From: Desulfobacterales bacterium
GTDB lineage: Bacteria; Desulfobacterota; Desulfobacteria; Desulfobacterales; JAHEIW01
Direction of reading: 5' to 3'
Length of the DNA: 34,387 nt
NCBI GenBank assembly: GCA_050123865.1
Contig: JASFGH010000001.1
Coordinates: 1 to 34,387 of the forward strand
Below the pieces are notes generated by a model. It saw nothing but the letters and a program-made list of their open reading frames with translations. It was not told the origin of the DNA and made no database searches. Within the stretch, counting starts at the first letter, position 1; each line of letters starts with the position of its first letter. The position numbers and the translations under genes were made by a program. Shown here piece after piece: positions 12,252-33,025 of the stretch.

Positions 12252-13030
12252 CGTTGATACCTTCCTCCTGCATAATGTCGTTTCTTGGGATGAACAAACA
12301 CAGGGGTCTTTTTGAGCAATAACCGCAGCGCCTGCCAGTAGATCATGGTGGTGACCTTGGCCGTCATCAACGGATATTTAAGCAGTACATCGGTCAGAGC
12401 CCATTGACTGATCTCACGACGTTTCAAAGCCAGACTGGCATCAAATAGCAATTGTTCTTTCTCATAGTCGATCATATGGACGCGGATCGATGTATCGGGT
12501 TCGCGAAAGCGCCAATCATAATCGATATTCATATCGATAAACGGCGAAACGTGAAAAATCTTAGCAAAACGATGCCGCCGCCAGTTTTTGACCGGATGTT
12601 CGCTATCCTCGCGGTCTAAAACGTAGCAGTGAACTTCACCCCAGGGCGTGTTGTGTATTTCAACAATTATGGTTTCAACACTTGAATCGGTTTTATCGTA
12701 GCAGTAGTAAAAACTGGCCGGGTTGAAGCAATAACCGAAATAGCGTAAGTGGGTCAGCATCCGAATCGGCCCCCCGGGTGTACGCCCGGTCTTTTCGGCA
12801 ACCAGACCTCGAACCGCCACGTCGATCGGCTGCTGCGGATCGCCAAAATGATCTTTACGTCTAAAATAGGCGATGTTCGGCCGCTGATATGACCAGAGCG
12901 GATGGCCATCAAACACATGGGGCAATTCTGCCAGATCTAAATACATAAAAAACAGGCGGTACCGGAACATATTCGGCCTTGGCCTGGAACGGCGATGCCG
13001 AACAGAGCCCTCGTAAATGCAACTATGCAT
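12248..13030 (-). CDS. DUF1365 family protein
   Basis: 260 aa. YEGSVRHRRSRPRPNMFRYRLFFMYLDLAEL and HLRYFGYCFNPASFYYCY are characteristic DUF1365 motifs. SD AAGGA upstream. Confidence 0.85.
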   Translation of the reverse strand: MHSCIYEGSVRHRRSRPRPNMFRYRLFFMYLDLAELPHVFDGHPLWSYQRPNIAYFRRKDHFGDPQQPIDVAVRGLVAEKTGRTPGGPIRMLTHLRYFGYCFNPASFYYCYDKTDSSVETIIVEIHNTPWGEVHCYVLDREDSEHPVKNWRRHRFAKIFHVSPFIDMNIDYDWRFREPDTSIRVHMIDYEKEQLLFDASLALKRREISQWALTDVLLKYPLMTAKVTTMIYWQALRLLLKKTPVFVHPKKRHYAGGRYQR

Positions 13031-13185: not shown

Positions 13186-14430
13186 TTAGAGAGATTTTCC
13201 GAAATGTTTTCCAACTACCAACGCACTATTGACCCCATCCTCGTGAAATCCATATCCCCAGTAAGCGCCGCAGAAATAGGTTCGCATGACACCGTTGATC
13301 TCCTCATGGCGATTTCTGGCAGCCAGGCTTTTGGGGTTATACACCGGATGATGGTAATGCATTTCTTTGATTTTCTTGGTCGGATCAACGGTGTTCGGCA
13401 AATTAAGGCTAACACAGTATTCGACCGGCGCCCCCAGGCTTTGCAAAATATTCATATCGTAAGTAAGGGCCACCCGTCCGGTCTCGGCTCGTGGAATATG
13501 GTAATTCCAGCTGGCCCAGGCCGCCTTTTTACTGGGTAAAACCGACTCGTCTGAATGCAGGACTGCATGATTGTCTTGATAGGGAATGGCTCCCAGGATT
13601 TCCTTTTCATTATCTGACGGATCTTCCAGCATAGCCAGCGCTTGATCACTATGGGAGGCAATGACCACCTGATCAAAGCGCTCTGGCTGACCATTTGCAG
13701 TCTGCACGCTAACATGGTCCGCATGGCGCCGGATGGATTTTACCGGGCAATTCAGACGGATGTGGTCGGCAAAAGACCGGGTCAATGGCCTTACGTATTG
13801 TTTTGAGCCCCCTTTGATAACCAGCCATTGAGGTTGGTTGCGCACATTTAAAAAACCATGGTTTTTAAAAAACTGCGCAAAATAAAGCGCCGGAAACTCA
13901 TTGAATTTAACCGGATCAGCCGACCAGATGGCCTCGCCCATGGGAATGATAAAATGCTCGATAAACAGCCGCGAAAACTTTTTGGCGGTCAAAAAATTTT
14001 CGAGTGTCAACGTGTAGTCATCGGTTTTCAAAAGGTCTTCGGATTCGCGTCGAAATTTAAAAATATCGTATATCATCCGATAAAACGCTGGCCGCAGCAG
14101 GTTCTGGCGCTGGATGAAAAGTGAATTCAAGCTGCTGGGGCTGAATTCCAATCCGGTCTTTTTACACTGCACGCTAAAGCTCATATTGGAAGGTTGCCAG
14201 GCAATACCCAGACGCTTCATTAACCGAAGAAAATTGGGATAGGTTTTCTCGTTGAATACAATGAATCCGGTGTCCACCGCATATGTTTCGCCATCTAAGC
14301 TAACATCGATGGTATGCGTGTGACCGCCGACATAGTCTTCGGCTTCAAATACAACCAGTTCATGCTCATCACTGAGCAGGTAGGCAGCCACCATGCCGGC
14401 TATACCAGTTCCGACAATAGCGATTCGCAT
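13186..14430 (-). CDS. FAD-dependent amine-oxidase-like oxidoreductase (COG2907 type; UfaD-like fatty-acyl desaturase candidate)
   Basis: 414 aa. N-terminal dinucleotide fold MRIAIVGTGIAGMVAAYLL...VVFEAEDYVGGH; C-terminal FCGAYWGYGFHEDG. Confidence 0.85.
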   Translation of the reverse strand: MRIAIVGTGIAGMVAAYLLSDEHELVVFEAEDYVGGHTHTIDVSLDGETYAVDTGFIVFNEKTYPNFLRLMKRLGIAWQPSNMSFSVQCKKTGLEFSPSSLNSLFIQRQNLLRPAFYRMIYDIFKFRRESEDLLKTDDYTLTLENFLTAKKFSRLFIEHFIIPMGEAIWSADPVKFNEFPALYFAQFFKNHGFLNVRNQPQWLVIKGGSKQYVRPLTRSFADHIRLNCPVKSIRRHADHVSVQTANGQPERFDQVVIASHSDQALAMLEDPSDNEKEILGAIPYQDNHAVLHSDESVLPSKKAAWASWNYHIPRAETGRVALTYDMNILQSLGAPVEYCVSLNLPNTVDPTKKIKEMHYHHPVYNPKSLAARNRHEEINGVMRTYFCGAYWGYGFHEDGVNSALVVGKHFGKSL

Positions 14431-18752: not shown

Positions 18753-19913
18753 TTAAAGCGGATCGCGCAGTGCTTCGGCGTAACCCGTCAATTCTGCGTA
18801 CCCGTCCGCCTTTAGAGGTTTTTTTGCGGCCGTACCGGTTGCCGCTACGCTACCTTCCCAGTAAATAATGCCCGTGCTTGCCGTTGTGACCATTTCCTGA
18901 TCGAGTAAATTGGCAGCAATGTTCAGTTCAATCGCAAGCGGCGCGATATTCAGCCGCCAGGCCACCGGATAAACCGCGCCGGATCGGGGGCTTTTCCACT
19001 GGTCCAGGACAGTAACCCTAAAGTCTTTTCCGGTTAGATGCCGGGCAACCCCCCATCGATCAATAAAGGTTCCACTGGATGCCGGGTTTAACTGCCCGTT
19101 CTGGTCTCTGAGCATGTACAGCATGAGCTCGGTTTGATCGGACAGCTGCAAGCTAAACCAGTCCCAGCCGACAATGTCCGCCTCTAATGATGCCGTACTG
19201 TATTCATGGTCCATCCAGCTCAGGCCTTCAACGGAAAATGTCTTGTCGTCGATCCTCAAAATTCCATTGGTTATCAGGCGCGTCAGCGAATAATAACAGC
19301 TTGCCCTTTCGGCAGTCGACCCCTTGCGGCTGTACCCCGCCTGCCCGTGTAAGGCGGGCGGCTTGGCCGGCTGCAACCTCAGCTCGAATGCAAAATCCGC
19401 CGTGCGCGCTTTTAGCGTGTGGCTGTCAGCACCGATGGTGGCCGACCAATCTTTGATAAATACAGTCGTTTCAAATGCTGTTTGAGCGATGCCTGCCATA
19501 TCCAAAGCACCTCTGGCCATTTGTTCGGTATGGCGGTGCTTTTTTTTATTCAGATCTGATATGGCGGCATGCCCGGCATAAATCTGCTGGGTGCGCCAGG
19601 CAGACGATGGCCGCGGCCAATCCTGAATGCTGTCGCTTGGGCTCATCTGGTTGCGAAAAAACGTTAACTGGAAACCATAACGCTCGCCTGATTCAGTTTG
19701 TAAATTGCCGGTATAATACCACCATTCGATGCGGTACCCCGGATGGGGTCCATGGTCTTTTGGGAATGTTAAATGACAGGGCTCGGTGACCGCTAAAAAG
19801 CCCTCCTCCTCTGCAGCCATCACTTGATGGCCGGTTACGGCAGTCATCAGAAAAAGACACGCAAGCGCAAAGGCAATTTTTACAGATCTTTGCTTCATCT
19901 TTTTTATGATCAT
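18753..19913 (-). CDS. AttH-like / CrtC (hydroxyneurosporene synthase)-fold lipocalin-like secreted protein
   Basis: 386 aa with signal peptide KIAFALACLFLMTAVTGHQVMA. The N-terminal motif FPKDHGPHPGYRIEWWYYTGNL...YGFQLTFFR is typical of AttH/CrtC-family proteins. It lies downstream of a FtsX-type ABC transporter. Confidence 0.8.
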   Translation of the reverse strand: MIIKKMKQRSVKIAFALACLFLMTAVTGHQVMAAEEEGFLAVTEPCHLTFPKDHGPHPGYRIEWWYYTGNLQTESGERYGFQLTFFRNQMSPSDSIQDWPRPSSAWRTQQIYAGHAAISDLNKKKHRHTEQMARGALDMAGIAQTAFETTVFIKDWSATIGADSHTLKARTADFAFELRLQPAKPPALHGQAGYSRKGSTAERASCYYSLTRLITNGILRIDDKTFSVEGLSWMDHEYSTASLEADIVGWDWFSLQLSDQTELMLYMLRDQNGQLNPASSGTFIDRWGVARHLTGKDFRVTVLDQWKSPRSGAVYPVAWRLNIAPLAIELNIAANLLDQEMVTTASTGIIYWEGSVAATGTAAKKPLKADGYAELTGYAEALRDPL

Positions 19914-20046
19914 CTAACCTTAATTATTCACTACATGTTGCGGCTTTTTAATGCAATTATTGTCCTTCTGCACAATCGCACCAGCATCAGCGGTTCAATG
20001 TAAAATAAAAAGTCTGCTCTGGTCTGCGTACGTCTGCGGTTAATTT

Positions 20047-22635
20047 TCATCGCTCACGCAAAAGTGTCGCCGGCGGTTTGCGGAAAACCATATTGACCGC
20101 CGGCAGGGCCGCAGCCAGAGCCGTCATAATAATTAACGGAATCGACAACACCAGAGCGTTCCAATCCACGCTGTAGATAAATGTCCAGCCAAATGATTGA
20201 CGATTTACCACATAGACCAGCAAATAAGACAAGATAAATCCACAAAAAATGCCGGCCAACTCCCCGATGACAACCAAAAAAGCGGCTTCCCAAAATATCA
20301 TGCGTCGAATCTGCCGAAAACTGGCGCCAACGGCAAACAGGGTGTTTAGCTGACGGGACCGTTCCAGCACCAGAACGGTTAGGGTGGTGGCAATGCCCAG
20401 GGCGGCAATCACCAATGCAATCAGCAGTAAAACCGTTGTCACCGCAAATGTTTCGTCAAAAATTCGCAGTACCGCACCGCGCAGTCCCTTACCGCTGTAC
20501 ATATCGACTTTATCACCCATGCGGTCAATAATATCGTTGCGGAGCTTGGCAACCGCTTTATCTAAATCCTGCGCTCGGTCTTTGAAGAAAAAGCGCAATC
20601 CGCCCACATACTCCTGGTGATACCGGTCGTTAAATTGCGCAATGGAGTAAAAAACTACACCACCCTGAGTGCGATAATCACGCACGATGCCCAAAATGGG
20701 CAGTTTTACACGGGATTTTTCGATCTGAGCCTCGAAGACATCGCCAATGGTCAATCCGGTGCGATTTGAGAATACCTCTGACACAACAACGCCCTCACCC
20801 CGCTTGAGCATCGGACGAATGGTTTCCGGATCCCCTTTCAACCAGAAAAAAGATGCATAGCGCATAAATCGCTGCATATCCAACAGCTCAAACTCATAGG
20901 GAAACTTGCCGTAGCTTAAAAAAAACCGTCGATTGGGTAAAATGTCCACTTCAGATTTATAGTTCCGCAGATAATCCATAACCTGATGGTGGACCGGAAA
21001 ACGAAAACGATTTATTTCCCCCATTTTGGATGTTAAAAATAAATCCCCTTTGATGGTCTCATAGGTCCAATATTCCACTGTCTGACGAAAGCTGAAAATC
21101 ATGATAACCAGCGCCGCAAATAAGGCCACCGCTGTGATCAAGGCGCCTACCGAGACCGCCGTGCGCGCCCCGCTGTCACGAACATAGCGACTGGCAAGAT
21201 AGGCCGGTATACCGATCCGCTTGAACAGCAAAGATGATAGGCTTTGGCTGACCCTTTGCAAAGTCCATGGCGCCAGGAGCGCAAAACCGACAAACAGCAG
21301 AAAAATAGCCAAATATCCGGGTAGCGGCATATCCAGTACTGCGGGAAGCCGGGATAAAGGCACTACCAGCAGGATACAGACTAGCCCCCCGAAGGCAAGC
21401 TGACGGGGAGATGATCGTGACCGCACACCCAGTTGTGAAATCTCCAATGCTTCTTTGGGGGGCACCTGCCTGGCCTCCCGAGCGGGCTGATAGGCCGCTA
21501 GAATCGAAATGCCAACGGTAACAACAAAACTAAAAACAACTTCAGCCACACTCAACGAAAGGGCATCTACTTGCACACGCACAAAAAGGGTGGAAATGGT
21601 TTGACTGACGCCGTGCAGCAGATACTTGATTAAAAAATTGCTGAGGGGAATGGCCAGCAGCCAGCCCGCGATTCCCAGAAACGCGCCCTCGGCTAAAAAA
21701 ATGAAAAAAACGTGATGGGCCGAAGCGCCCGTGGCCCGCAGAACTGCCAGTTCATGCCGACGGGAAGCCGCATTCAGGGCCACCAGGCTATACACCAGAA
21801 ACATCCCCACAAACAGAGAAGCAAAGCTCAGGATAGAAAGATTGAGCTGATAAGACCTGATCATCGCCTGCCCGCTTTCGCGCGCGGCAGTCGGCGGATT
21901 CAGCAGAACACCTTCAGGTAAAAGTTGTTCAACAGCCGCCAGGTCCCTTGAATGGGCAGATGGCGCCAGCCGCAGATCGATTCGATCGACTTTGCCAAAC
22001 AACCCGGTAAATTCCTGAAAGGTGGCAATGTCAGTTATGGCAATCCGGCCGCCTTCAGCCAGCGACAGCCCGCTGGATTCCAGCATCCCTAAAATCCCAA
22101 AGCGTGCTTTTTGGCGTGCATGCTCTAGAACGAGCGTGTCACCGGAGGTGCGCTTTAATTGACGGACCAATGGTTTACCCAAGATAAGCGTATAAGGCTC
22201 TCTTAATAAGTCCAACCAGACAGCACCCTGTTGACCGTTCGGATCATCAATGCGCCATTGACGCATGGGCTGATCCAAGATCGGATCAAAACCGATCAGC
22301 AAAAACGGCTCTGCGCCTTCCTGAGCAACGCGCGTATAGGTTGATAGCACCGGTGAGGCACTTTGGATCATCGGGTGGTTTAAGAGTTCAGCAATCAGGT
22401 TGTCAGGGACATAGCCGCCCGGCCGGGTGAGCACTTGGTCCGCCTGCCCGGCAATCAAATCAATGCTTTTGGTGAAAGAATCCAGCGAGGCGTTCACCGA
22501 AAGGCGCACGCTTGCAAAAACAGCCGCGCCCAGCGCAATTCCGAAAAGTACCGTCACAGCCCGTCCCATATGTTTGCGCATATGTCGCAGACTGAACCAG
22601 ATGAAGAGGCGGAAAAAAAACAGAATATTTCTCAT
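20047..22635 (-). CDS. ABC transporter permease with duplicated FtsX/MacB-type modules (fused AttF/AttG-like)
   Basis: 862 aa. Two 4-TM FtsX-like modules, each preceded by a large extracytoplasmic domain. The start overlaps the ATPase stop (ATGA at 22632-22635). Confidence 0.85.
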   Translation of the reverse strand: MRNILFFFRLFIWFSLRHMRKHMGRAVTVLFGIALGAAVFASVRLSVNASLDSFTKSIDLIAGQADQVLTRPGGYVPDNLIAELLNHPMIQSASPVLSTYTRVAQEGAEPFLLIGFDPILDQPMRQWRIDDPNGQQGAVWLDLLREPYTLILGKPLVRQLKRTSGDTLVLEHARQKARFGILGMLESSGLSLAEGGRIAITDIATFQEFTGLFGKVDRIDLRLAPSAHSRDLAAVEQLLPEGVLLNPPTAARESGQAMIRSYQLNLSILSFASLFVGMFLVYSLVALNAASRRHELAVLRATGASAHHVFFIFLAEGAFLGIAGWLLAIPLSNFLIKYLLHGVSQTISTLFVRVQVDALSLSVAEVVFSFVVTVGISILAAYQPAREARQVPPKEALEISQLGVRSRSSPRQLAFGGLVCILLVVPLSRLPAVLDMPLPGYLAIFLLFVGFALLAPWTLQRVSQSLSSLLFKRIGIPAYLASRYVRDSGARTAVSVGALITAVALFAALVIMIFSFRQTVEYWTYETIKGDLFLTSKMGEINRFRFPVHHQVMDYLRNYKSEVDILPNRRFFLSYGKFPYEFELLDMQRFMRYASFFWLKGDPETIRPMLKRGEGVVVSEVFSNRTGLTIGDVFEAQIEKSRVKLPILGIVRDYRTQGGVVFYSIAQFNDRYHQEYVGGLRFFFKDRAQDLDKAVAKLRNDIIDRMGDKVDMYSGKGLRGAVLRIFDETFAVTTVLLLIALVIAALGIATTLTVLVLERSRQLNTLFAVGASFRQIRRMIFWEAAFLVVIGELAGIFCGFILSYLLVYVVNRQSFGWTFIYSVDWNALVLSIPLIIMTALAAALPAVNMVFRKPPATLLRER

Positions 22636-23339
22636 GGAAGGCCCGTAATCATACCGTCTTTTAGACCAATCTTGACCGACGCCATTTCATCAGCAAGTGT
22701 GCTGTGGGTCGCAATCAAAACAGTGCGTTTCCATTTTTGATTCAGTTCTGCCAGCAGATCCATAACAATTTGTCCGTTATGACTGTCAAGATTTCCAGTG
22801 GGCTCATCGGCCAGGATAATGGCAGGATCATTTATGAGGGCTCTGGCAATGGCGGTGCGTTGCATCTCGCCGCCGGAAAGTTGGGCTGGAAGGTGATTTA
22901 AACGGCTTTCAAGCCCTAACCATTGAAGCAGCTCCATGCCTTTGGGGTGGCTTTCGGCCACCGATTTGCCGGCCAGAAGCGCCGGCAGACAGATATTTTC
23001 GAGGACATTTAGCGTTGGCAGCAGATTAAAAGACTGAAAAACCATGCCGACGACCTGCCGGCGAAAGTGGGTCAACTGGCTGTCGGTTGAATTGTTTAAA
23101 TCATGCCGGGCGACTTTCAACTCGCCGGCGGAAGGCCGATCAAGGCCCGCCAATAAAGAAAGAAGTGTACTTTTCCCGGAACCACTGTTGCCTTTAAGCA
23201 CCACTAGCTCGCCAGCAGCTATCTCTAAATCGACCTGGCTGATCCCGACGACCTCGCTGTTACCCAGTTTGTAGATGCGGGTGAGGCCTTTGGCCGAGAT
23301 TACAGTTTGAGGTTTTTCATGGGTCATGGTGGATTTCAA
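22632..23339 (-). CDS. ABC transporter ATP-binding protein (LolD/MacB-type, AttE-like)
   Basis: Walker [10 protein letters not shown], signature LSGGEMQR, Walker [13 protein letters not shown]-loop ATHS. Confidence 0.9.
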
Positions 23340-23345
23340 AAAAAG

Positions 23346-24002
23346 TTATTTAGCCAGAAAGCCCTGTTGAACGGCATCATCAATGAGGCTTGAAACATAT
23401 TCCCATAATAGGTGTGAGCCGTCGCTAACCGGCTGCATTCGCGCAATGACCTGATTTTTTTGGATACCGTATTTTTGCCAGGTGTGGCCGCGGGTAAAAT
23501 AATTATGTAAAAATGGCTGCACTCGATCCAGGGCGTTGGCGAATTTCGATTCCGGTGTATCTTTGGCCTCATATTCATCCCATAGAGCCCGCAACGCATT
23601 GGCCTGATCTTGCGGCAGGATGTTAAAGATGCGCTCAGCCGCTTTATTTTCGCGCTTTTGTTGATCCCGGCCGCCGACTTCATCATAGCAGTATGTGTCG
23701 CCGGCGTCGATTTCAACCAGATCGTGTATCAGCAACAATTTGATCACCTGCAGGAGATCCAAATTCTCATCTTCGGCATATTCTGAAAATATGAGCACCA
23801 GCAGTGCGATGTGCCAAGAGTGCTCGGCCGAATTTTCCTGGCGGGAAACATCCAGCAGAGTGGTTCTACGATCAACTTTTTTAAGCCGATCCGCTTCCAG
23901 TATAAATTCGATCTGGCGTTTGAGACGCTTACTACCCACAGACCGGGTTTTACTTAGTGGTGTTTCAACACCGATTTGGCTTTCACCGCCTGCTTTCAAC
24001 AT
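23346..24002 (-). CDS. HD-domain phosphohydrolase (YfbR-like 5'-nucleotidase fold)
   Basis: The H...HD...D metal motif reads ENSAEHSWHIALL...LLLIHDLVEIDAGD. The gene sits 6 nt upstream of the ABC ATPase gene. Confidence 0.75.
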   Translation of the reverse strand: MLKAGGESQIGVETPLSKTRSVGSKRLKRQIEFILEADRLKKVDRRTTLLDVSRQENSAEHSWHIALLVLIFSEYAEDENLDLLQVIKLLLIHDLVEIDAGDTYCYDEVGGRDQQKRENKAAERIFNILPQDQANALRALWDEYEAKDTPESKFANALDRVQPFLHNYFTRGHTWQKYGIQKNQVIARMQPVSDGSHLLWEYVSSLIDDAVQQGFLAK

Positions 24003-24040
24003 AAGCCAACTCCTGATTTCTCAATGATCGTCGTTAGTTG

Positions 24041-25255
24041 TTATTTTTCGCGGGTATATCCCCATACGGCGTACACCGGATCGGAAAACAGCATTTGCGA
24101 GGCGTACTTATCATTAGCCGGTCGCGGCAGCCCGCGCATGGAATAAGTTTGTAGATTAGCATATTGACCGGATTTTAGGAAGAATTCAAGTACCAAACCC
24201 AAACGCTCAAATTCGTGTAACTCAGACCAGATGCGTATGGCTTTGGGTGGAAACCAGCGGTTGGAGAACGTGACGCTAAAAATACCACCCGGCTTAAGAA
24301 CACGATTGATTTCTTCGAAAACTTCAAATGGATGAACCAAATATTCAACCGAAACCGTGCAGATCGCCGCATCGAAAGCGTTATCATCAAAAGGCAGTTG
24401 CGGATTGTCGTTCAGGTCGTGAACACAAAAATCGGACAACCGATTGTTGGCCTGCAGTTCTTCTTTATTCATTCCAAGGCCGGTGACGGATTCTATAGGG
24501 AGGTCCTCAGGAAGATGAGACACCCAGCTGCTCATCAAATCCAGGACTTTGCTTTCGGGCTGCACTAGTATGCCGTAAAGCCGACTGATGGTACCAATGG
24601 CCGTATCATCGATGTGTTGCACCAGGCGAGGCTGGTCATAAAACTTTTCGTCGGGGCTTTCGTCCGCCCTTCGGAAGGGATCATCAGCAAAAAAATTGGT
24701 GGACCTGCCGTTTATGCGAGACTGCATCCCCGGCCCGCTGAGAGTGGTCTCGGCCCAGTCAATACTGGTACCGCCGTGTTCTTCAAATTTCTCGCGTACG
24801 TCTTTGATGGCCGCCATAAATGTAAGGCTTTTATCCGAAAGGGGATGATTCGCATCTGCCTTGATGCCCTCACCATTGGTAGTTACACAGCGAAAAGGGG
24901 TCATGTTATTCGGATAGACACCCGCTACTTTGGTGAGAATCCCCAGTGGATAAAATCGGCCGAATCTCGGCTGGATCGGCTCTGTCTGAGGTGAAAGGGG
25001 TGTAATCTGACGTTGATGGAATGCATAAATGCTGCGTTCGTCTCTGGCCGCCACTAAAGTGCCCGGTTTGGCCTCCATTGCAACCTGATCACCGGTTTGT
25101 TTACCGTGCAATTCATCGAGTAATTGTGGAGGCAGGAAATCCCGCCATATGTTAACTCTCTGACCGTAGTAACGGTCGGTATGCTGAATGCCGTTGTGCG
25201 TAAAAGACGCGCTAAATTCGACACTGGCCAGGACATCTTCAGATATTTTTTCCAT
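24041..25255 (-). CDS. Two-domain protein: N-terminal ~200 aa of unknown (possibly FKBP-like) fold fused to a class I SAM-dependent methyltransferase
   Basis: 404 aa. The C-terminal half has KVLDLMSSW..., FDAAICTVSVEYLVHP and VLKPGGIFSVTFSNRWFP (Methyltransf_11-like). The N-terminal half (VEFSASF...RVNIWRDFLPPQLLDELHGKQTGDQV) only loosely resembles SlyD/FKBP. Confidence 0.7.
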   Translation of the reverse strand: MEKISEDVLASVEFSASFTHNGIQHTDRYYGQRVNIWRDFLPPQLLDELHGKQTGDQVAMEAKPGTLVAARDERSIYAFHQRQITPLSPQTEPIQPRFGRFYPLGILTKVAGVYPNNMTPFRCVTTNGEGIKADANHPLSDKSLTFMAAIKDVREKFEEHGGTSIDWAETTLSGPGMQSRINGRSTNFFADDPFRRADESPDEKFYDQPRLVQHIDDTAIGTISRLYGILVQPESKVLDLMSSWVSHLPEDLPIESVTGLGMNKEELQANNRLSDFCVHDLNDNPQLPFDDNAFDAAICTVSVEYLVHPFEVFEEINRVLKPGGIFSVTFSNRWFPPKAIRIWSELHEFERLGLVLEFFLKSGQYANLQTYSMRGLPRPANDKYASQMLFSDPVYAVWGYTREK

Positions 25256-25421: not shown

Positions 25422-26794
25422 TTAGAGCCGGTTTAAATCTTGTTTGTAGGATTGCGCCTGTTTTAGAATGCGCCGCTGATCTTTTGGATTTTTGCGATGC
25501 CAGGTTCGGTACATCATGCCGATACGGGGATTATTTTGCAAGTTATCATGATGCCGGGCAAAGAAATCCCAGAACAGACAGTTAAACGGACAGGTCGACT
25601 CTCCGTATGCTTTGGTACGATCGTAGCTGCACTGACTGCAGTAGTCGCTCATTTTGTTGATGTAGTTTGCTGATGACACATAGGGTTTTGTGGCAACCCG
25701 ACCTCCGTCCGCCCACTGGCTCATTGCCCGAGTATTGGGCATCTCTACCCATTGGATGGCATCGATGTATACACCCAGATACCATTCTTCGACCTGGTCG
25801 GGATGCACGCCGGCCAGCAGCGCGAAATTTCCGGTGACCATCAGACGTTGAATATGATGGGCATAAGCATGCTCTAATGATTGACCAATAGCAGTCTGCA
25901 TGCATTTCATTTTCGTCTGGGCAGTCCAGTAAAAATCGGGCAAGTCAGCCTTGTGCTTGAAAAAATTCATGTCTCCCAATTTCGGCATCAACGTCCAATA
26001 GACACCGCGCATGTATTCACGCCATCCTAAAATCTGGCGCACGAAGCCTTCAATCTGTTGAATCTTGATGGTGCGTTTTTGCTTTTCCCAGGTTCGAATG
26101 GCCGCTTTGATGACTTCCAGCGGATGCAGCATTTTCGTGTTGAGCGCAAATGAAATGCGGGCATGGAATAGCGCCCAGCTTTTGGTGGTCATGGAATCCT
26201 GATAGGTTCCGAATTCTTTGAGCCCATCTTTCAAAAAGGCATTCAACAGCGCCCTGGCCTGGGATCGGTTGATCGGCCAGATCAGATTTTGTGGATTAAT
26301 GGCACCAAAGTTTTGACACCATCGTTTTGGATCATTTGATGGAGATTGCGGACGTCGTTTCGAAACAGCTTGGGCTTTGGAATCGGAACTCGGCCATCAT
26401 AGCGTCTGCGGTTTTCAACATCAAAGTTCCAGCGCCCGCCCTGCGGCTTGTCGCCATCCATTAAAATATCGTGCCTTTTGCGCATCTGGCGATAAAAGGA
26501 TTCCATCAGGTAGCGCTTTTTGCCGGCAAAAAAATTCTTGAAATCCTGGCGCCGGGTCAAAAAATGCTCGGTATCAACCGCCTCCCCGGGAACCGAAAGC
26601 GATTTGACCAGCTTGCGCAGCTCAACATCCAGGCGGTATTCATCGGGCAGCAAATACTCGAAACGTTCAAACTGCTGTTTTTTGAGCAGCTGTTTAATGT
26701 TGCCCGCGATGGTTTGTTGATTTTTGGGATCATCCAGCCGCAGATAAATAACCGTGTGCCCTTTTTCTTCTAGTTTTTCTGCAAAAGCGCGCAT
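25422..26794 (-). pseudogene. FeS-BCP / (6-4)-photolyase-type cryptochrome-photolyase (PhrB/CryB family, COG3046), 5'-truncated and frameshifted
   Basis: The N-part (26794-26282) starts at MRAFAEKLEEKGHTVIYLRLDD, which normally lies ~55 residues into the family. The C-part (open frame from about 26313 to 25422) contains GTYQDSM, IEGFVRQILGWREYMRGVYW, HAYAHHIQRLMVTGNFALL and the four Fe-S cysteines (MKCMQ, DYCSQCSYD, STCPFN). The frames are joined by a 1-nt shift in an A4 run (plus-strand T run 26311-26314). Confidence 0.8.
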
Positions 26795-26803: not shown

Positions 26804-28192
26804 TTATTTCCTGCTTTGTCTTGCCAGAGCATCCACCTTTTTGACATAGGCCTGAATATCACATTTACGCTCCAGCCCGGAGGCTGCCATATACCGGATT
26901 TTGCCGAAAATCGGCCGCTCGAACCAGGCCCGATCGTGAACCCCGAAGACCCAGGCTACACCGGTATAAGAATTGGCGTCGCGGCCGTCCAGAAAATATT
27001 TGTTGTTGATGGCCTGGGTTGTTTTAAAGGCCTGCTCCGGGGATGGAGACCATTCCAGGATTTTTTTACCCCAGTACATGCGCATGTAATTGTGCATAAA
27101 GCCGGTAGCGGTCATCTCGCGCATGGCCGCATTCCAATAATCATCGTGGGTTTGAGCATTTTCCAGCTGCCGGCGGGTGTAAGTGTGCTCGCGCTTGTCT
27201 TTTTTATGCTCGCTCAACGTCTTTTGGGCCCAGTTCGGCAGGCACCGGTATGAATCATAGTTTGGGTTATAGAAAACAAAATTCATGGCCAGCTCACGGC
27301 GCACGATCAATTCCTCTATAAACGCTTCCCGGGCTGCCTTAAAACGTTTGTCGGTGCCTTGCACCTTCAACGCCAGATACAAGGGAGAAATCTGGCCAAA
27401 ATGCAAATATTTGCTCACGTGGGAAACATCATCGGTCTGGGGCTGGTTGCGGTTGTCGACATAGTTTTTAAGCCGATGCCGTAAAAAATCGGCAAAAATC
27501 TTACATACCTGAGCGGTGCCGCCTTTAAAAAATTGGCTGACCGGCGCAATACTTCTATTCAGCGACATTTTCTTTAAAACAGCGTTGATATCGCTCAGAT
27601 CGATTCCTTCGACCCGGAACTGCAGAGAAGATTTTTTTATTTTCGTTGGTTTGAGTTTAATGAGGTAATCTTTGAGATGCTTGTGTATTTTTGGCCGTAT
27701 GGTGCGAGCCGCATATTCGGCTTTGTTTGAAACCACTTCCAAAGGCACCACCACATCACTTTCGACCTGGACCACCCGACAATCGGCGTCTTTGGCGACC
27801 TTTTTGCGCCACTGCTTTTGATGCCGGAGATAACCGCGGTCGCACACAATTAGGGACGCTTTTTGGCCGGTGGCAAGGGCCACATCAGCCGGATCACCTT
27901 TTTGAACGACCATTTTGATGCTGCGCTTGCCCAGTGCCGCCTGGGTTTCCTGAAGCCCTTCCAGCATGAAGGTGTAATGGCGCAAATTGGCTTCCGGATA
28001 ATCATCCATCAGCCCGAAAACCACTAATACGCCCTGCCCCATTTGGTTGGCCTGCTGCACCGCGTATTCCAGGGCATGGTTATATTCGGCCCGCTGGGAT
28101 TGCTGCATCCAATAGAGCACAAAATTACCCCGACGTAGATCAAGATCGTTTAAAAACTGAATCCGCGTATCCTGTATGTCGTTAGATGCCAT
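26804..28192 (-). CDS. phr: Class II CPD deoxyribodipyrimidine photolyase
   Basis: 462 aa. Motifs: FVLYWMQQSQRAEYNHAL, YLHFGQISP, FMHNYMRMYWGKKILEW, DGRDANSYTGVAWVFGVHDRAW. Confidence 0.9.
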   Translation of the reverse strand: MASNDIQDTRIQFLNDLDLRRGNFVLYWMQQSQRAEYNHALEYAVQQANQMGQGVLVVFGLMDDYPEANLRHYTFMLEGLQETQAALGKRSIKMVVQKGDPADVALATGQKASLIVCDRGYLRHQKQWRKKVAKDADCRVVQVESDVVVPLEVVSNKAEYAARTIRPKIHKHLKDYLIKLKPTKIKKSSLQFRVEGIDLSDINAVLKKMSLNRSIAPVSQFFKGGTAQVCKIFADFLRHRLKNYVDNRNQPQTDDVSHVSKYLHFGQISPLYLALKVQGTDKRFKAAREAFIEELIVRRELAMNFVFYNPNYDSYRCLPNWAQKTLSEHKKDKREHTYTRRQLENAQTHDDYWNAAMREMTATGFMHNYMRMYWGKKILEWSPSPEQAFKTTQAINNKYFLDGRDANSYTGVAWVFGVHDRAWFERPIFGKIRYMAASGLERKCDIQAYVKKVDALARQSRK

Positions 28193-28221
28193 GCGTTCAC
28201 CGATGATTGCCCCGAGTTGGC

Positions 28222-29721
28222 CTATTCTTGGGATGCTGCATCAAGTTTGTTTTGCAGCTCCAACCAGTCGTTGAGCTCCAATATCGTTTGCGATAGTTGA
28301 TAGCGGCCTCCGGCAAACACACCGTAATCTCCCCCGCCGGCCATGGAGGAAGCGAAACGGATGGTATTCGAGTAAAACAGCCAGGTTGTGCTCCATTTTT
28401 TTTCAATGGCTTCGTCATAGGGGTTGTCCTGGCTCTCGGCCAGGCCGAGCTTCCAGACGTCCTGCATGATGCGGGTGGCGGTCAGCGTCTGGGCATTGGT
28501 TTCTTTGATGGTGTTTTCAAAGCGCTGCCAGTGACCGTTAACCCAGGAAGCATCATGGCAATTCAGACAGGCCGCCTGCATGGCCTGCTTGCGAACCGCC
28601 ATTTCCTTTTGATCGATTAAATACTTGGTTGCAAAGCCGCCATTATAATCGGTTGGCAGGGGCAATCCGTCTTTATTGCGGATAATGCTGGTATCGGGTT
28701 CTAGGGGATGTGGGTGGGCATAAATTAATCCCAGAATACGCCACGGCAGCCGATTGTTCATCTGATGGGTTCTTTCAACCACGACCTCTTCATCGGTGTT
28801 GACCAGCAGGCTGATATGACAGGTAGCGCAGGTAGGGGCCGTAAAATCTTTGCCGATGGTCCAGGGCACGGCTTTAAAATCCCAGGTGGCATGTTTGCTT
28901 GAAAAAATGTTGCCATGTTTGCTGGCGGCATAGACCTTGTATGCCGGCACATCGGGCCCCACATGGCATTCCTTGCAGGTATAGGGTTTGCGTGCCACTT
29001 CAATGGAGAAGGTATGACGGGTATGGCAGGCTGAGCATGATCCCATGCTGCCGTCCAGATTAATGCGCCCCACCCCCTGATTGGGCCAGCCTTTGATAAT
29101 CGGTAATTCCAACTCGCCAGCAGCCTCGGTATCGCGGGTTTCATAGCCGGCCAGGGCCAGTTTTGTACCATGGCAGTAAAGGCACGCCTCTGCCCGTGTG
29201 GCATCATTGGCAGGCGTCCGCGTTATTTTGCCGTTCTTGTATTTCGTCTCTGCCAGAATGGCATGCTCATGTTTTTGATGCAGTTTATTGTTAGCCAGAT
29301 TTCCGTAGGCATGGGCCATAATATTTTTGGCGTATTGCTTTCTTTCGGTTGCATGACAGGTCTTGCAGTCGTCGGGGCTGACGACTACATGAACCTCATA
29401 GCCGTTGTGCTCAAATGTATCGGCGTGCGCCTTAGGTCTGAGGGTGTGGCACTCGGCACATCCCACCACAACATTTTGCAGGTTTTCAGGAACCGTCTGG
29501 CTGGATACTTTACGGGCAACCCCTTCCACCGTCATTGCATTTTGGGGGGTGATCAGCGCGTGGCGGCTTTTTTGCCAACCACTGACAATACCCGGATGAA
29601 TCGATGCGTGGCAGTCGATGCATTCGGCACTGGCTTCGCTGAGCGGTATATCATCCGCCAGAACGATATTATGGATCAGCAGGCACATGCAGACAGTCAA
29701 AATGAGCAAAAACGATTTCAT
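28222..29721 (-). CDS. Periplasmic octahaem c-type cytochrome of the hydroxylamine-oxidoreductase (HAO) family
   Basis: Sec signal MKSFLLILTVCMCLLIHNIVLA. Eight CxxCH motifs: CIDCH, CAECH, CKTCH, CLYCH, CSACH, CKECH, CATCH, CLNCH. HAO-like core GWPNQGVGRINLDGSMGSCSACHTRHTFS...CKECHVGPD...YAASKHG. Strong SD AAGGAG 7 nt upstream. Confidence 0.8.
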   Translation of the reverse strand: MKSFLLILTVCMCLLIHNIVLADDIPLSEASAECIDCHASIHPGIVSGWQKSRHALITPQNAMTVEGVARKVSSQTVPENLQNVVVGCAECHTLRPKAHADTFEHNGYEVHVVVSPDDCKTCHATERKQYAKNIMAHAYGNLANNKLHQKHEHAILAETKYKNGKITRTPANDATRAEACLYCHGTKLALAGYETRDTEAAGELELPIIKGWPNQGVGRINLDGSMGSCSACHTRHTFSIEVARKPYTCKECHVGPDVPAYKVYAASKHGNIFSSKHATWDFKAVPWTIGKDFTAPTCATCHISLLVNTDEEVVVERTHQMNNRLPWRILGLIYAHPHPLEPDTSIIRNKDGLPLPTDYNGGFATKYLIDQKEMAVRKQAMQAACLNCHDASWVNGHWQRFENTIKETNAQTLTATRIMQDVWKLGLAESQDNPYDEAIEKKWSTTWLFYSNTIRFASSMAGGGDYGVFAGGRYQLSQTILELNDWLELQNKLDAASQE

Positions 29722-29762
29722 ATAACGCTCCTTATGAATGTATCAGAAAGGTTTCATGGGGG

Positions 29763-30227
29763 TTAGCGGCGGTTTTCAAAAATAGTCTCAAGTGCTGTTT
29801 GCCGGTAATCAAATATGTCGTTCAGCTTGGAGCGTATTACCATATTGTGCAGGATTTGTCCAAGCCATCCATATTTTATAGCATAATGAACTGTGTCAAG
29901 CATCTCGATACCTGTTGTGGTTTCGATAAATCGGTGCTGATGGTACCAGAAACGATACGGACCAACGCGCATTTCATCGACGAAAAAATAAGGTTCGTTA
30001 ACATGGGTAATTTCGGTGATCCAAGTGGTGGGTAATTGAAAAAAGGGTCTGAGTCGGTAGCTGATGATCATTCCGGGGTACATTTTGCCGGGAATGGTAT
30101 CGGTTATCCTAAAATCAAGCCAAACCGGGGTGAGCTGCTGAAGATTATGGGGATCGGAAAAGAATGCCCACGCCGTTTCAAGGGATATAGGCAATAATTG
30201 ACGGAGTTCAAGCCGATAAAGTTTCAT
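29763..30227 (-). CDS. SRPBCC (START/polyketide-cyclase-like) ligand-binding protein, COG4276 type
   Basis: The preferred start is ATG 30227 (MKLYRLELRQLLPISLETAWAFFSDPHNL...). The longer track ORF would overlap the upstream gene end. Motif FVDEMRVGPYRFWYHQHRF. Confidence 0.7.
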   Translation of the reverse strand: MKLYRLELRQLLPISLETAWAFFSDPHNLQQLTPVWLDFRITDTIPGKMYPGMIISYRLRPFFQLPTTWITEITHVNEPYFFVDEMRVGPYRFWYHQHRFIETTTGIEMLDTVHYAIKYGWLGQILHNMVIRSKLNDIFDYRQTALETIFENRR

Positions 30228-30300: not shown

Positions 30301-31839
30301 TCATATTTGTCTTGTTGGCAACGTGCAACTGTCATGCAGCTTGGGCGTGAATCGTGTTGGTCCCTGCTCAAGGGCTTTGCCGGACAATTTGGCTATGGAT
30401 TTAAGCATGCCGGCAAAAACCCATTGATGAAACGGATAAAACGCATACCAGTAAATAAAGCCACTCAGCCCTCTGGGCATAAATCGTGAAATCAGCTCCA
30501 GCTCGGATCGCTCCTCATCCATGGCGTTGATTTGAAATTCCAGGATGGCATCGCCGGGTGCTTTCATTTCAGAAAGCAACACCAGCCGCTGGGGGGGCTC
30601 CATAGCAAGAACCCGCCAGAAATCAACTGCTTCACCCACTTTTCGCCCTGCCCGGTTTGAACTTCCGCGGCCGAGACCCGGGCCACCTGCCAGCCGATCG
30701 ATCCAGCCACGCAGTCGCCAGAGCGTATCACCAAAATAATAGCCTCGATGGCCGCCGATTCTATGAATCAGATCCCAGAGTACTTCGACAGAGGCATTCA
30801 ATTTAGCGCGGTAGCCGCATTTTAAAATTGTGCCGCCCGCCCAGTCCGCATCACCGCAATGGGCCCATTCGGGCTCTATCAGCTCACCGGCATCCGCCCA
30901 GCAACTGTCCACCTGCTGTTGTTTGACCCGCTCCAGCGCCAATCGAATGGCTTCGCGGCAGCTTAACAGCTTCTGAGGAATGATCGTCTGAATGCGATTT
31001 TCAGTGCACACTGCCGCACTGGTCAAGCCTTCGGTCAACGGAAGAGCAATCGAAGCCGGAACCGGGCTGATCAGGTGAATCCAGTAAGCGCTCAGGGTTG
31101 GTGTAAGAACCGGCACCGGTATAATCAAGCGTTTGCGCAAATTGGCCTCCTCAGCATAGATATCCAGCAGTTTGCGGTAGGTTAGGACATCCGGCCCGCC
31201 GATGTCATACGTTTGCCCGATAGTTTCATCGTGCGCCAGACACTCCACCAAATAGTGAACCACATTGCGGATGGCAATGGGTTGGTTGAGCGAAAACACC
31301 CAGCGTGGTGTGGTCATCACCGGCAGATGCTCGACCAGATAGCGCAAAATCTCAAAAGAAGCGCTGCCGGATCCTAAAATCATCGGCGCCCGCAAATCCG
31401 TGGTGGGCACCGGCCCTGCCTGGAGGATATCAGCCACCTCGATACGGGATTGTAAATGTTTGCTGAGTGTGGTGTCTTGCGCTTCGGCCAGGCCGCCCAA
31501 GTATATGATTCTTTCCAAGCCTTCTGATGCGGCAGCGTCGACCATGTTGCGAGCGGCCGCACGATCAGCTTCAGCAAATTTGTCCTTCTGGGCAATCATG
31601 GAGTGCACCAGGTAATAGGCTGCCCGGCAGCCTGTGGCTGTTTTTTTCAGGGAGGCCTTGTCCAGTACATCACCCTGAACCAGTTCAATCTGTTCGTGCT
31701 GTGCCCAGGGACGGCAGGCGAGTTTATCTATGGAGCGGCCCATGGCCCTTACGCGATAACCGGCCTCAAACAGCGCCGGAATCAGCCGTCCCCCGACATA
31801 ACCCGTTGCACCGGTCACAAGGATAGGTTGGGAAGTCAT
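30301..31839 (-). CDS. NAD(P)H-binding NmrA/atypical-SDR domain fused to DUF2867
   Basis: ATG at 31839 (TTG 31854 in the track). Rossmann motif ILVTGATGYVGGRLIPAL. The C-terminal ~170 aa (RGYYFGDTLWRLRGWIDRLAGGPGLGRG...) is DUF2867-like. Confidence 0.75.
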   Translation of the reverse strand: MTSQPILVTGATGYVGGRLIPALFEAGYRVRAMGRSIDKLACRPWAQHEQIELVQGDVLDKASLKKTATGCRAAYYLVHSMIAQKDKFAEADRAAARNMVDAAASEGLERIIYLGGLAEAQDTTLSKHLQSRIEVADILQAGPVPTTDLRAPMILGSGSASFEILRYLVEHLPVMTTPRWVFSLNQPIAIRNVVHYLVECLAHDETIGQTYDIGGPDVLTYRKLLDIYAEEANLRKRLIIPVPVLTPTLSAYWIHLISPVPASIALPLTEGLTSAAVCTENRIQTIIPQKLLSCREAIRLALERVKQQQVDSCWADAGELIEPEWAHCGDADWAGGTILKCGYRAKLNASVEVLWDLIHRIGGHRGYYFGDTLWRLRGWIDRLAGGPGLGRGSSNRAGRKVGEAVDFWRVLAMEPPQRLVLLSEMKAPGDAILEFQINAMDEERSELELISRFMPRGLSGFIYWYAFYPFHQWVFAGMLKSIAKLSGKALEQGPTRFTPKLHDSCTLPTRQI

Positions 31840-31909
31840 CTTTCGGCCTTTCAATTATTAAATTGGTAAAATTTAGCTTGCATGGGTTTTAAAATGTCAG
31901 AATTTGCCC

Positions 31910-31959: not shown

Positions 31960-32040
31960 TGTTCAGCAAGGCGCCGATTCAATTTAAAAGCGGAGCGTAC
32001 ACGGTAGTACGTGAGCATTTTGAATTGATTCGCAATGCAG
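31960..32040 (+). repeat. Copy B of the same element: orphan relic of an OmpA-type gene 3' end (RRFNLKAERTR-TAG) with nested hairpin
   Basis: See copy A. The plus-strand frame 31972-32007 ends CGG-TAG exactly as the intact gene does. Outer stem ttcaatttaaaa (31978-31989) / ttttgaattga (32018-32028); inner stem cgtac/gtacg (31996-32000 / 32007-32011). Confidence 0.8.
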
Positions 32041-32074: not shown

Positions 32075-33025
32075 TCAGACGTGGGTTCTAAGCTTTAACT
32101 CCACCGGATGCGGATTCAAATATGTTTGCAATTTTAGATATTGCTGATCGTATTTGCGCACAAAATGATTAATCAATGTAATCGGTACAACCAGCGGCAC
32201 AAATTCCTGGTGGTACTGCTCAAATAATTCAAGCAGCTCCTGCTTTTCATCGCGGGAGAGCTGTTTTTTGAAATATCCCATCAAATGCTGCAGCACATTC
32301 ATATTCTTTTTCGGTGTGGTCTTGAGCGCCAGTGCTTCCATTAGCAAGGCCTCATATTGAGCATACAACGCTTCCATCGGCATCTGTTTGCCGGCAGCCA
32401 CCAGTTTGCCCATCAAGCGCGAATGTTTCTGACTGTGTGAGAGAATTAAAAGCTTGTTGCGGGTTTGAAAATCCACCAGGTTACCCATATTTTTGCCGAT
32501 GGATATGGTCTGCCGCCAGCGTTGCAGAGCAAAGATGCGTTCGATGAAATTTTCTCTGATCTTGGGATCATGCAGTCGCCCATCATCTTCGGCGGGGATC
32601 AGCGGAAAATGGGCCATAAATTCTCTGGCAAACATGCCCACCCCTTTTTTAACCGGCATTCCTTTTTCGGTATAGACCTTTACCCGGATCATGCCGCTGC
32701 TCGGCGAGTCACTTTTAAAGATGAAACCATGCAGATCTTCTTTTTCCAGTTCTTCGACCCGTCTGCGGGCCCATTTGAGCATTTGATTGGTTTTATCCGT
32801 TTTGGTCTTAAAGGTGATCAGGCGCGGATTATCCGGATCGCCCACCAGACGCATCGATTCCCGGGGAACGCCAAAACCGGCTTCGACTTCCGGGCAGACC
32901 GGAACATAATCCACAAATTGGCCCAGCGTGCGGGTCAGGTAGCGGTCCATTTTGTGACCGCTATTCCAGCGAACCGCATTGCCCAGCAGACAGGAGCTGA
33001 TACCTAGCCGAACGCGTTCATTCAT
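32075..33025 (-). CDS. DUF523-DUF1722 fusion protein (YbbK/YbgA-like; DUF1722 is the photolyase-linked YbgA domain)
   Basis: 316 aa. N-terminal LGISSCLLGNAVRWNSGHK...VPVCPEVEAGFGVPRE (DUF523); C-terminal helical half LLILSHSQKHSRLMGKLVA... (DUF1722). Confidence 0.75.
   Translation of the reverse strand: MNERVRLGISSCLLGNAVRWNSGHKMDRYLTRTLGQFVDYVPVCPEVEAGFGVPRESMRLVGDPDNPRLITFKTKTDKTNQMLKWARRRVEELEKEDLHGFIFKSDSPSSGMIRVKVYTEKGMPVKKGVGMFAREFMAHFPLIPAEDDGRLHDPKIRENFIERIFALQRWRQTISIGKNMGNLVDFQTRNKLLILSHSQKHSRLMGKLVAAGKQMPMEALYAQYEALLMEALALKTTPKKNMNVLQHLMGYFKKQLSRDEKQELLELFEQYHQEFVPLVVPITLINHFVRKYDQQYLKLQTYLNPHPVELKLRTHV

Follow-up and report, generated by a model that had tools for sequence, protein, structure and literature searches.

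A predicted IhOCC-type octahaem cytochrome recurs beside a photolyase gene in Desulfobacterales

A Tyr cross-linked to the catalytic haem is the hallmark of the oxidative enzymes of the hydroxylamine oxidoreductase (HAO) type, and HAOs free of this cross-link reduce nitrite, nitric oxide (NO) and hydroxylamine (NH2OH) and do not oxidise (PMC8042395). Among the latter are HAOr of Kuenenia stuttgartiensis (Kustc0458; Protein Data Bank (PDB) entry 6H5L) and epsilon-Hao (PMC8042395). IhOCC of Ignicoccus hospitalis (Igni_0955; PDB 4QO5) is an octahaem nitrite reductase of the HAO/HDH clade in which the P460 cofactor is absent (PMC9250108). Here we describe a gene for an octahaem cytochrome c that we assign, from its sequence and modelled fold, to the IhOCC subtype, in Desulfobacterales bacterium (GenBank assembly GCA_050123865.1, contig JASFGH010000001.1; the whole stretch analysed, positions 1 to 34,387 or 34,387 nucleotides (nt), is referred to as the window). 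The gene (28222..29721, minus strand) is followed on the same strand by one for a class II cyclobutane pyrimidine dimer (CPD) photolyase (26804..28192; TIGR00591 E 2.7e-159; PF00875). We show that the pair has been co-inherited through at least 40% protein divergence in Desulfobacterales, and that it is co-transcribed in a close relative of the window.

A second set of described systems is comparable at the level of gene content. In Shewanella, the RpoE2-ChrR regulon includes a ybgA-phrB-cfa operon and the periplasmic glutathione peroxidase PgpD (PMC4336711), and related gene sets, including those for furan fatty-acid synthesis, are under RpoE-ChrR control in Proteobacteria (PMC6852236, PMC7380195). 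The window shares with these regulons its YbgA, photolyase, short-chain dehydrogenase/NmrA-like, cyclopropane fatty acid (CFA)-synthase/DUF1365/amine-oxidase, lipocalin and DUF1295 genes (PMC4336711, PMC6852236), as well as the combination of a cytoplasmic gene set with one periplasmic antioxidant enzyme, for which the Shewanella regulon is a precedent. It differs from them in having neither an rpoE-chrR pair nor their TGATC-N15-18-CGTA promoter, in that the putative periplasmic member is an octahaem cytochrome and not a thiol peroxidase, and in that the host is a strict anaerobe.

The cytochrome gene encodes a product of 499 amino acids (aa) with eight CxxCH motifs (first Cys at C34, C88, C119, C180, C229, C249, C298 and C385). 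Its ATG is preceded at 6 nt by a Shine-Dalgarno sequence (AAGGAG, 29728..29733, minus strand), a 41-nt spacer (29722-29762) separates it from the stop codon of an upstream SRPBCC-fold gene, and a further spacer of 29 nt with no terminator-like site in sequence or terminator scan (28193..28221, minus strand) leads to the photolyase ATG. The Shine-Dalgarno sequence, both spacer lengths and the motif count all agree with an earlier reading of this DNA (the original prediction). The N-terminus, MKSFLLILTVCMCLLIHNIVLA followed by DD, reads as a Sec signal peptide, hence the protein is presumably exported: cleavage is predicted between VLA and DD after residues 1-22 (29656..29721, minus strand), the AlphaFold2 (AF2) model has a helix over residues 2-17 followed by low confidence at 19-22, and a canonical lipobox was not present on inspection of the sequence.

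Among solved structures, the best relative of this protein was 4QO5, matched near full length at E 2e-111 with the single sequence and 8e-130 with a family profile, whereas canonical HAO, HOX, HAOr and HDH were matched over the haem 5-7 core only (E 1e-10 to 1e-21), 6H5L being the second-best sequence match at E 8e-17. The PF13447 match (69.7 bits vs a cut-off of 21.9, aligned to profile positions 97-179 only) covers residues 228-308 and spans haems 5-7, which takes in the HAO-type core predicted around haems 5-6. An AF2 model built from a 102-sequence alignment reaching down to ~40% identity had a mean per-residue confidence (pLDDT) of 92.5 and a predicted template modelling score (pTM) of 0.87; an earlier model from 14 close sequences (pLDDT 39) was not used. 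In a Foldseek search of the PDB, this model matched 4QO5 at a template modelling score (TM) of 0.89 and E 5e-44, and also significantly matched Nitrosomonas europaea HAO (TM 0.61) and Kuenenia HOX, HAOr and HDH (TM 0.53-0.58), with E values over the five ranging from 1e-9 to 1e-44. The NrfA and ONR folds had E >0.01 and low TM, OTR was not among the Foldseek results, and the CxxCK motif of the Lys-ligated catalytic haem of NrfA/ONR nitrite reductases was not found in the protein. The eight haem motifs follow the HAO-family order, column for column with the HAO of Ruegeria pomeroyi in a 12-sequence clade alignment, over which the non-motif residues H54, H236, H269 and H319 are invariant; the pattern of the clade is a homotrimer with seven bis-His haems and one five-coordinate catalytic haem (haem 4) per subunit, for which these His residues give indirect support. 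Because 4QO5 is the best match by both sequence and fold and the NrfA/ONR fold is not significant, we place the cytochrome in the HAO clade as a predicted IhOCC-subtype member; the HAO-family membership originally proposed thus holds in a narrower form, and the protein did not fall into a non-HAO multihaem family.

Compared with IhOCC itself, the window protein shows full-length homology, eight CxxCH motifs in like order, Phe at the cross-link position, the 'PDVPA' motif, and no adjacent quinol dehydrogenase. It differs in being bacterial, in its predicted cleavable Sec signal peptide without any indication of a membrane anchor, and in that a cytochrome of the window type shares a transcript with a photolyase (as seen in the relative), whereas I. 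hospitalis is a vent hyperthermophile. At residues 473-474, the window protein has R-Y, IhOCC has W-Y, and W-W predominates in the wider family. Counted as representatives of clusters formed at 50% identity, the family has 146 members at E 1e-30 or better and 1021 when the limit is E 1e-3; the best 150 matches in the representative library were considered, and canonical HAOs ranked lower than these. A word-index search with an 83-aa fragment of N. europaea HAO returned four short fragments and no full-length HAO.

To evaluate the linkage, we surveyed one genome per GTDB species and retained the best 80 of 249 relatives of the cytochrome (61-92% identity), nearly all of them metagenome-assembled genomes (MAGs) of Desulfobacterales. 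A photolyase gene was found directly downstream on the same strand at <400 nt in 37 of these 80 loci and elsewhere in the flank in 3; at least 1.5 kb of downstream sequence contained no photolyase in 31, and the contig was too short to tell in 9. The photolyase thus adjoins the cytochrome in 40 of 71 informative species-level genomes, and the pair is also kept in other gene orders, namely HD-photolyase-x-cytochrome-NmrA-x-YbgA (L054), cytochrome-methyltransferase-photolyase (L060) and photolyase-cytochrome (L070). For a reverse survey, the photolyase served as query and 80 metagenome loci were obtained; 32 of them had the cytochrome immediately upstream, including all 24 informative loci in which the photolyase was at least 75% identical to that of the window. 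The linkage, for which the original prediction had asked for recurrence in other genomes, thus recurs widely within Desulfobacterales. The spacer between the two genes has a median of 29 nt and measures at most 50 nt in 45 of the 65 loci with complete gene ends, and the identities of cytochrome and photolyase to their window copies co-vary strongly (Spearman rho 0.94, n = 59 loci). In a rough neighbour-joining tree, photolyase-linked cytochromes fill several deep clades, interleaved with unlinked ones.

These patterns bear on the alternative, raised at the outset, that the cytochrome gene entered a photolyase operon recently, by a one-off insertion or by horizontal acquisition. Photolyase operons of the YbgA-NmrA type without the cytochrome do exist, which implies that an insertion or a loss occurred at some time. 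A recent event is nonetheless rejected as extremely improbable by the co-divergence of the two proteins over 59 loci, by the presence of the linkage in several deep clades, and by the ordinary composition of the cytochrome gene (GC content 0.52, third-position GC 0.60, codon usage inside the range of its neighbours), in line with the compositional comparison that had been proposed. The distribution fits either an old adjacency with later losses or a shuffling of modules.

Two further sets of loci from this survey deserve mention. The MAG JARRJQ01 carries two cytochrome-photolyase pairs (L015 and L016; 72-73% and 73-79% identity to the window proteins), reflecting either a duplication or a bin mixing two strains. 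In addition, Desulfobacterales-type cytochromes 67-71% identical to that of the window were found in MAGs labelled Gammaproteobacteria and Nitrospinaceae (L024 and L027, the second also with a YbgA-NmrA array), which suggests mis-binning or island transfer.

Next, we evaluated transcription of the pair from RNA contigs of two wetland metatranscriptome runs (X25 and X26) that are 99-100% identical to the close relative represented by loci L003 and L081, in which the gene order is that of the window and the cytochrome is 88% identical. Contigs that run from the end of the cytochrome gene through the spacer into the start of the photolyase gene were obtained in both runs (L003:2276-2540 in X25, L003:2329-2521 in X26, and L081:5911-6175), and more contigs reach the photolyase end and enter the following FeS-BCP gene. 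The longest contigs, of 860 nt (X25) and 657 nt (X26), share the same start base (L003:744 / L081:4379), which falls inside the SRPBCC 3' end; its counterpart in the window is position 29816 (minus strand), 95 nt upstream of the cytochrome ATG. RNA depth is zero for ~670 nt upstream of this shared start, with some RNA on YbgA and NmrA farther upstream, and contig depth is the highest of the array on the cytochrome (12.1 and 8.7 vs 2-6 on the photolyase). This uneven coverage, zero or lower upstream, argues against DNA carry-over. When the RNA contigs were compared with the window itself at 90% likeness, coverage was fragmentary and no contig bridged the junction.

A promoter-like element, TGGACA-N17-TAATAC with TG at -15/-14, is located inside the SRPBCC 3' end (29834..29862, minus strand), 18 nt upstream of the RNA boundary, and is identical in L003. 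Of the 80 genome loci, 11 have this motif, matched at 11-12 of its 12 positions, in the 200 nt that precede the cytochrome gene, whereas the remaining 2.2 Mb, scanned on both strands, contain only 4 matches. The upstream sequence is unrelated in four of these 11 loci (L015, L023, L038 and L045), three of which have an HD gene, not a photolyase, after the cytochrome. The cytochrome thus seems to be equipped with a conserved sigma-70-type promoter of its own, from which the photolyase is transcribed. A general scan for consensus promoters and terminators found no site in either spacer flanking the cytochrome, its overall counts being close to those for shuffled sequence. RNA and promoter together suggest a transcription unit that begins with the cytochrome and includes the photolyase, so that the cytochrome would not be a mid-operon passenger: of the original placement of the gene within a photolyase operon, the shared transcript with the photolyase stood (in the relative), and the internal position probably did not, the cytochrome seeming to be the first gene of its own unit. 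Separately, an operator was considered upstream of YbgA and discarded, as the blocks conserved there in 49 loci coincide with the -35/-10 hexamers of the predicted promoter of a divergent PNPOx-like gene.

The type of chemistry was assessed by alignment with the HAO of the R. pomeroyi megaplasmid, a canonical enzyme whose gene has haoB directly downstream and whose Y489 corresponds to Y467 of N. europaea HAO, given the numbering offset of 22 residues derived from the haem-8 motif, and is the sole Tyr nearby. In the 12-sequence alignment, Y489 is aligned with F469 of the window protein (28315..28317, minus strand), three residues before the nearly invariant G472; at ~25% identity, this part of the alignment is anchored by G472 and W447. 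Of the 80 close relatives, 66 have Phe and 14 have Tyr at position 469, and Phe also stands there in 72 of 75 wider-family members and in IhOCC. Since the position varies freely between Phe and Tyr, it is not that of a conserved cross-linker. The counterpart of the distal Asp-His pair of HAO, found by alignment with 1FGJ/4FAS, 6H5L and 4QO5, is D257-V258 (28948..28953, minus strand), in a motif that reads 'GVDH' in 1FGJ/4FAS, 'GPDH' in 6H5L, 'DPDVPA' in 4QO5 and 'GPDVPA' here. V258 is present in 79 of the 80 close relatives and Val or Ala in 71 of 75 wider-family members, and His was never seen at this position in 102 sequences. By its place in the HAO-family alignment, the haem-4 motif CLYCH (C180-H184; 29170..29184, minus strand) would hold the catalytic haem, presumably five-coordinate by homology with HAO and IhOCC (PMC9250108); 101 of the 102 family members share C180, and H184 does not vary among them.

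Because Phe469 replaces the cross-linking Tyr and Val258 replaces the distal His, the enzyme is predicted to be reductive and not oxidative. With no Tyr cross-link, no distal His and no haoB-like gene found in the window, a P460 cofactor and oxidative chemistry are accordingly not expected. Similarity to the oxidative HAO/HDH enzymes (1FGJ, HOX 4N4J, HDH 6HIF) is thus a matter of fold (TM 0.53-0.61), haem-motif order and the distal Asp, whereas the cross-linking Tyr (here Phe469), the distal His and the haoB neighbour set them apart. The original prediction had let the choice of chemistry turn on this Tyr, and the alignment both places haem 4 and puts Phe469 where the Tyr would be.

We then considered possible redox partners. 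Beyond the octahaem gene, no stop-to-stop segment of at least 50 aa in the six frames of the window carries a CxxCH or CxxCK motif, and Pfam scans of the remaining larger window open reading frames (ORFs) found no NapC/NrfH-type protein and no ccm/ccs maturation gene. The claim that the window lacks a quinol dehydrogenase, a second cytochrome and a haem-lyase gene is therefore borne out by these scans, and the adjacent NapC/NirT-family tetrahaem quinol dehydrogenase that is a trait of epsilon-Hao is missing, no other ORF in the window bearing CxxCH. Kuenenia HAOr and epsilon-Hao resemble the window protein as HAO-clade enzymes without the Tyr cross-link that reduce nitrite, NO and NH2OH (PMC8042395), but they retain the distal Asp-His ('GPDH'), have as partner cytochrome the dihaem Kustc0457 or a NapC/NirT-type protein, and are similar to the window protein in the haem 5-7 core only.

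An HAO-family paralog of the epsilon-Hao-like kind was encountered on the mobilizable plasmid L162 of Desulfosarcina ovata (NZ_AP021877.1, 27518-41760). It has 466 aa and the 'GPDH' motif, and adjoins genes for a NapC/NirT cytochrome, NorR, the large subunit of nitric-oxide reductase (qNor) and a hemerythrin-domain protein. These plasmid genes form a nitrosative-stress module, contrasting with the partner-less window cytochrome.

The absence of a partner gene weighs differently on two alternative functions. The cytochrome could be an energy-conserving respiratory nitrite or hydroxylamine reductase, of the type used in dissimilatory nitrate reduction to ammonium, which lies near repair genes by chance. 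IhOCC has been grouped with dissimilatory nitrite-reducing multihaem enzymes (PMC9250108), and Tyr-less 'hao' genes are very abundant in mats (PMC8940962). However, NapC/NirT/NrfH-type quinol dehydrogenases are absent from the window and from seven other family contexts, the epsilon-Hao-like D. ovata paralog does have one, together with NorR and qNor, and no respiratory genes are found in the gene context of the window, all of which makes this function very unlikely. The protein could instead be a non-catalytic periplasmic carrier or store of electrons, for instance from hydrogenase, as has been proposed for Igni_0955, which native hydrogenase reduces and whose in vivo role is regarded as open (PMC4429474). 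The missing dedicated partner gene and distal His, and the top RNA contig depth of the array, are in keeping with such a carrier. Against it, the haem-4 motif and distal Asp are strictly kept, as an active site would be, and the characterised members of the clade are all catalytic (PMC9250108, PMC8042395), and we consider a purely electron-carrying function unlikely.

We favour, if with modest confidence, a function of the cytochrome as a periplasmic reductase of small oxidants that is co-expressed with the photolyase in a response to light or oxidant exposure. The substrate would be one of those reported for IhOCC, epsilon-Hao and Kuenenia HAOr (nitrite, hydroxylamine or NO), and H2O2 or O2 might be reduced as well. 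Electrons would be drawn from a general periplasmic pool of cytochrome c3, hydrogenase and formate dehydrogenase and not from a dedicated quinol dehydrogenase, and the cytochrome would represent the periplasmic arm of the response with which these anaerobes meet light and oxidants on the surface of sediments or mats. The five-coordinate state of haem 4, the substrate, the electron donor and the link to light or oxidants are points that we infer, and the co-regulated detoxification of reactive N/O species suggested by the original prediction would be consistent with the gene context and with the reported activities of relatives.

Several observations weigh against this function as a light- or oxidant-responsive reductase. 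In appearance, the promoter is constitutive, of an ordinary sigma-70 type with an extended -10; no light- or oxidant-responsive regulator or operator-like element was found, and the promoter of ECF11 (RpoE-ChrR), TGATC-N15-18-CGTA, has 0 matches in the window. Nor did Pfam scans of the window detect any pair of extracytoplasmic function (ECF) sigma factor and ChrR, the only related feature being a truncated sigma-70 region-2 ORF (6814-7461). The transcript data are assembled contigs of a relative with 88% protein identity, whose ends are not equivalent to mapped transcription starts. The distal Asp-Val pocket differs from the Asp-His of the characterised nitrite-reducing HAOr and epsilon-Hao. 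As for the linkage, no photolyase accompanies the cytochrome in 31 of the 71 informative genomes (44%), and 23 informative loci with photolyases 66-73% identical to that of the window show a YbgA-NmrA-photolyase array without the cytochrome. Finally, a search from a 44%-identical family member reached sequences labelled Nitrospirota, Aminicenantes, KSB1 and Poribacteria, and no photolyase was found near family members in seven contexts outside Desulfobacterales, where the neighbours are mostly unrelated. The linkage is therefore order-specific, and within Desulfobacterales it is facultative.

It is thus possible, if on the unlikely side, that the linkage involves no shared function: the photolyase would simply ride on the strong promoter of the cytochrome, or the two genes would lie in a slowly rearranging neighbourhood, and the job of the cytochrome would be unrelated to light or DNA damage. 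The ordinary promoter without a recognisable operator, the loci in which either gene occurs without the other, and the orphan status of the family in unrelated contexts elsewhere all speak for this explanation, and the linked cases all belong to one order, so that shared descent explains much of the recurrence. However, the two genes lie on the same strand with a 29-nt median gap and share a transcript, and the pair survives at least 40% sequence divergence and three differing local gene orders. In addition, the partners of the cytochrome in photolyase-free loci (HD nucleotidase, PNPOx-like) suggest stress or damage control, as does the context of Poribacteria relatives (ferritin, rubrerythrin, P460).

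In these Poribacteria, the IhOCC-like cytochrome forms one protein with an AhpC/TSA thioredoxin-fold domain and a weakly matched FMN_bind domain (L166; WJIO01000421.1, gene 8001-10562), and several such fusion proteins, of 853-859 aa, were found. The neighbours in L166 encode a SoxA/TsdA-like cytochrome, a NOX-like ferric reductase, cytochrome P460, an FMN reductase, a ferritin and a rubrerythrin-like protein. The gene contexts of the window and of Poribacteria both point in general terms to stress defence.

A more specific form of the reductase function can be put forward tentatively, although we regard it as rather unlikely. The cytochrome might be the extracytoplasmic, pre-emptive arm of a DNA-protection operon, clearing the periplasm of mutagenic nitrogen species that would otherwise reach the chromosome. 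Under this speculative scheme, which we would give a low probability as a whole, such species might be hydroxylamine, nitrite (as nitrous acid), NO, and the products of sunlit nitrite or nitrate photolysis or of daytime nitrification at the sediment surface, and cytoplasmic partners (two photolyases, the thiouracil desulfurase-like YbgA and the HD 5'-nucleotidase) might repair or sanitise the remainder.

The remaining genes of the array are all on the minus strand. Upstream of the cytochrome are the SRPBCC-fold gene (29763..30227; PF03364 at 23.1 bits, a weak Polyketide_cyc/SRPBCC match), which probably starts at 30227 and not at an overlapping TTG at 30371, the median length in its homolog cluster being 154 aa; a gene with an NmrA-like NAD(P)-binding domain and DUF2867 (30301..31854; Pfam); and a YbgA-like gene with a 2-thiouracil desulfurase domain and DUF1722 (32075..33025; Pfam). 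Downstream of the photolyase, the FeS-BCP/(6-4) photolyase-related gene (25422..26794) is disrupted, as indicated by a PF04244 match on its first piece only and by DNA alignment to relatives: compared with L003, L004 and L006, it shows a 5' deletion of ~244 nt right after the photolyase stop and a net -1 frameshift near 26290, whereas an intact FeS-BCP ORF of ~513 aa is present in 14 related loci. The broken copy is either a pseudogene or an assembly error. The photolyase-type neighbourhood described in the original prediction is therefore confirmed for the YbgA-like, NmrA-DUF2867, SRPBCC (by its weak match) and class II photolyase genes, and has to be amended for the FeS-BCP gene.

Farther downstream lies a conserved set encoding a methyltransferase, an HD_3 phosphohydrolase, an ABC ATPase, a MacB-type permease and a CrtC-like lipocalin (18753..25255, minus strand; Pfam). 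Among loci with at least 7 kb of sequence downstream of the cytochrome, these genes follow it in 18 of the 24 that have the photolyase and in 8 of the 22 that lack it. Within this set, the HD_3, ABC ATPase, MacB-type permease and CrtC-like double-lipocalin genes (18753-24002, minus strand) trail the photolyase cassette, and in several photolyase-free loci (e.g., L012, L023 and L032) the HD_3-to-CrtC-like genes directly follow the cytochrome. Also on the minus strand, Pfam identified an amine-oxidase-like flavoprotein (13186-14430), a DUF1365 gene (12248-13030) and a CFA-synthase-like methyltransferase (10965-12251), and these genes resemble the furan/cyclopropane fatty-acid genes of singlet-oxygen regulons. 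On the plus strand, at 1423-5709, are a second CMAS-like gene, DUF1295, an MFS_2 transporter, a chalcone-isomerase-like protein and a Blc-type lipocalin (Pfam), and the window also encodes a fatty-acid desaturase, DUF4174, DUF2177, DUF1499 and a universal stress protein (Pfam). Overall, the whole window is a photo-oxidative-stress island with genes typical of bacterial light and singlet-oxygen responses, and such a full gene set is noteworthy in a strict anaerobe.

Two smaller features were recorded in passing. The product of ORF 6814-7461 (minus strand) contains sigma-70 region 2 only (residues 129-197 of 215) and an unrelated Cys-rich tail, a CBS-domain gene directly follows it, and it is probably a truncated or frameshifted sigma-factor gene. 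The YbgA-NmrA spacer includes a hairpin-forming element of ~40 nt (31986-32025; -15.1 kcal/mol, z = -3), for which DNA depth in the source metagenome is ~30-fold that of its flanks (336 vs ~10), with many different flanking sequences. This element is abundant in RNA contigs and occurs in the same spacer in L011, L083, L098 and L099 and elsewhere in L110, and it looks like a repetitive extragenic palindromic (REP)-like repeat or a small transcribed element. An Rfam search gave no match at gathering score.

The IhOCC-type family and the photoprotection gene set are both known, whereas their conserved, co-transcribed pairing is not described in the literature that we searched, in which no paper joins the cytochrome and photolyase gene families. 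The association had been proposed as new if conserved; it is conserved in Desulfobacterales, with the qualification that it is confined to that order and facultative there. The IhOCC subtype has so far been characterised in vitro only, from one archaeon, and HAO-family genes without the cross-link are found widely, with high abundance in anoxic sediments and mats. The pairing with a photolyase provides a first handle on the role of these abundant orphan 'hao' genes and places them in a physiological setting that can be tested: the sediment surface, with its exposure to light and oxidants. For annotation, labels such as 'hydroxylamine dehydrogenase/oxidase', carried by several of our matches, should not count as evidence for nitrification. 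More broadly, a multihaem enzyme is added to the known bacterial photoprotection gene sets. If the DNA-protection function considered above were true, it would give a physiological role to the 'hao' genes that lack the cross-link, a group that ranks with the most abundant nitrogen-cycle genes of microbial mats, and would tie light exposure to nitrogen-oxide detoxification in sulfate reducers.

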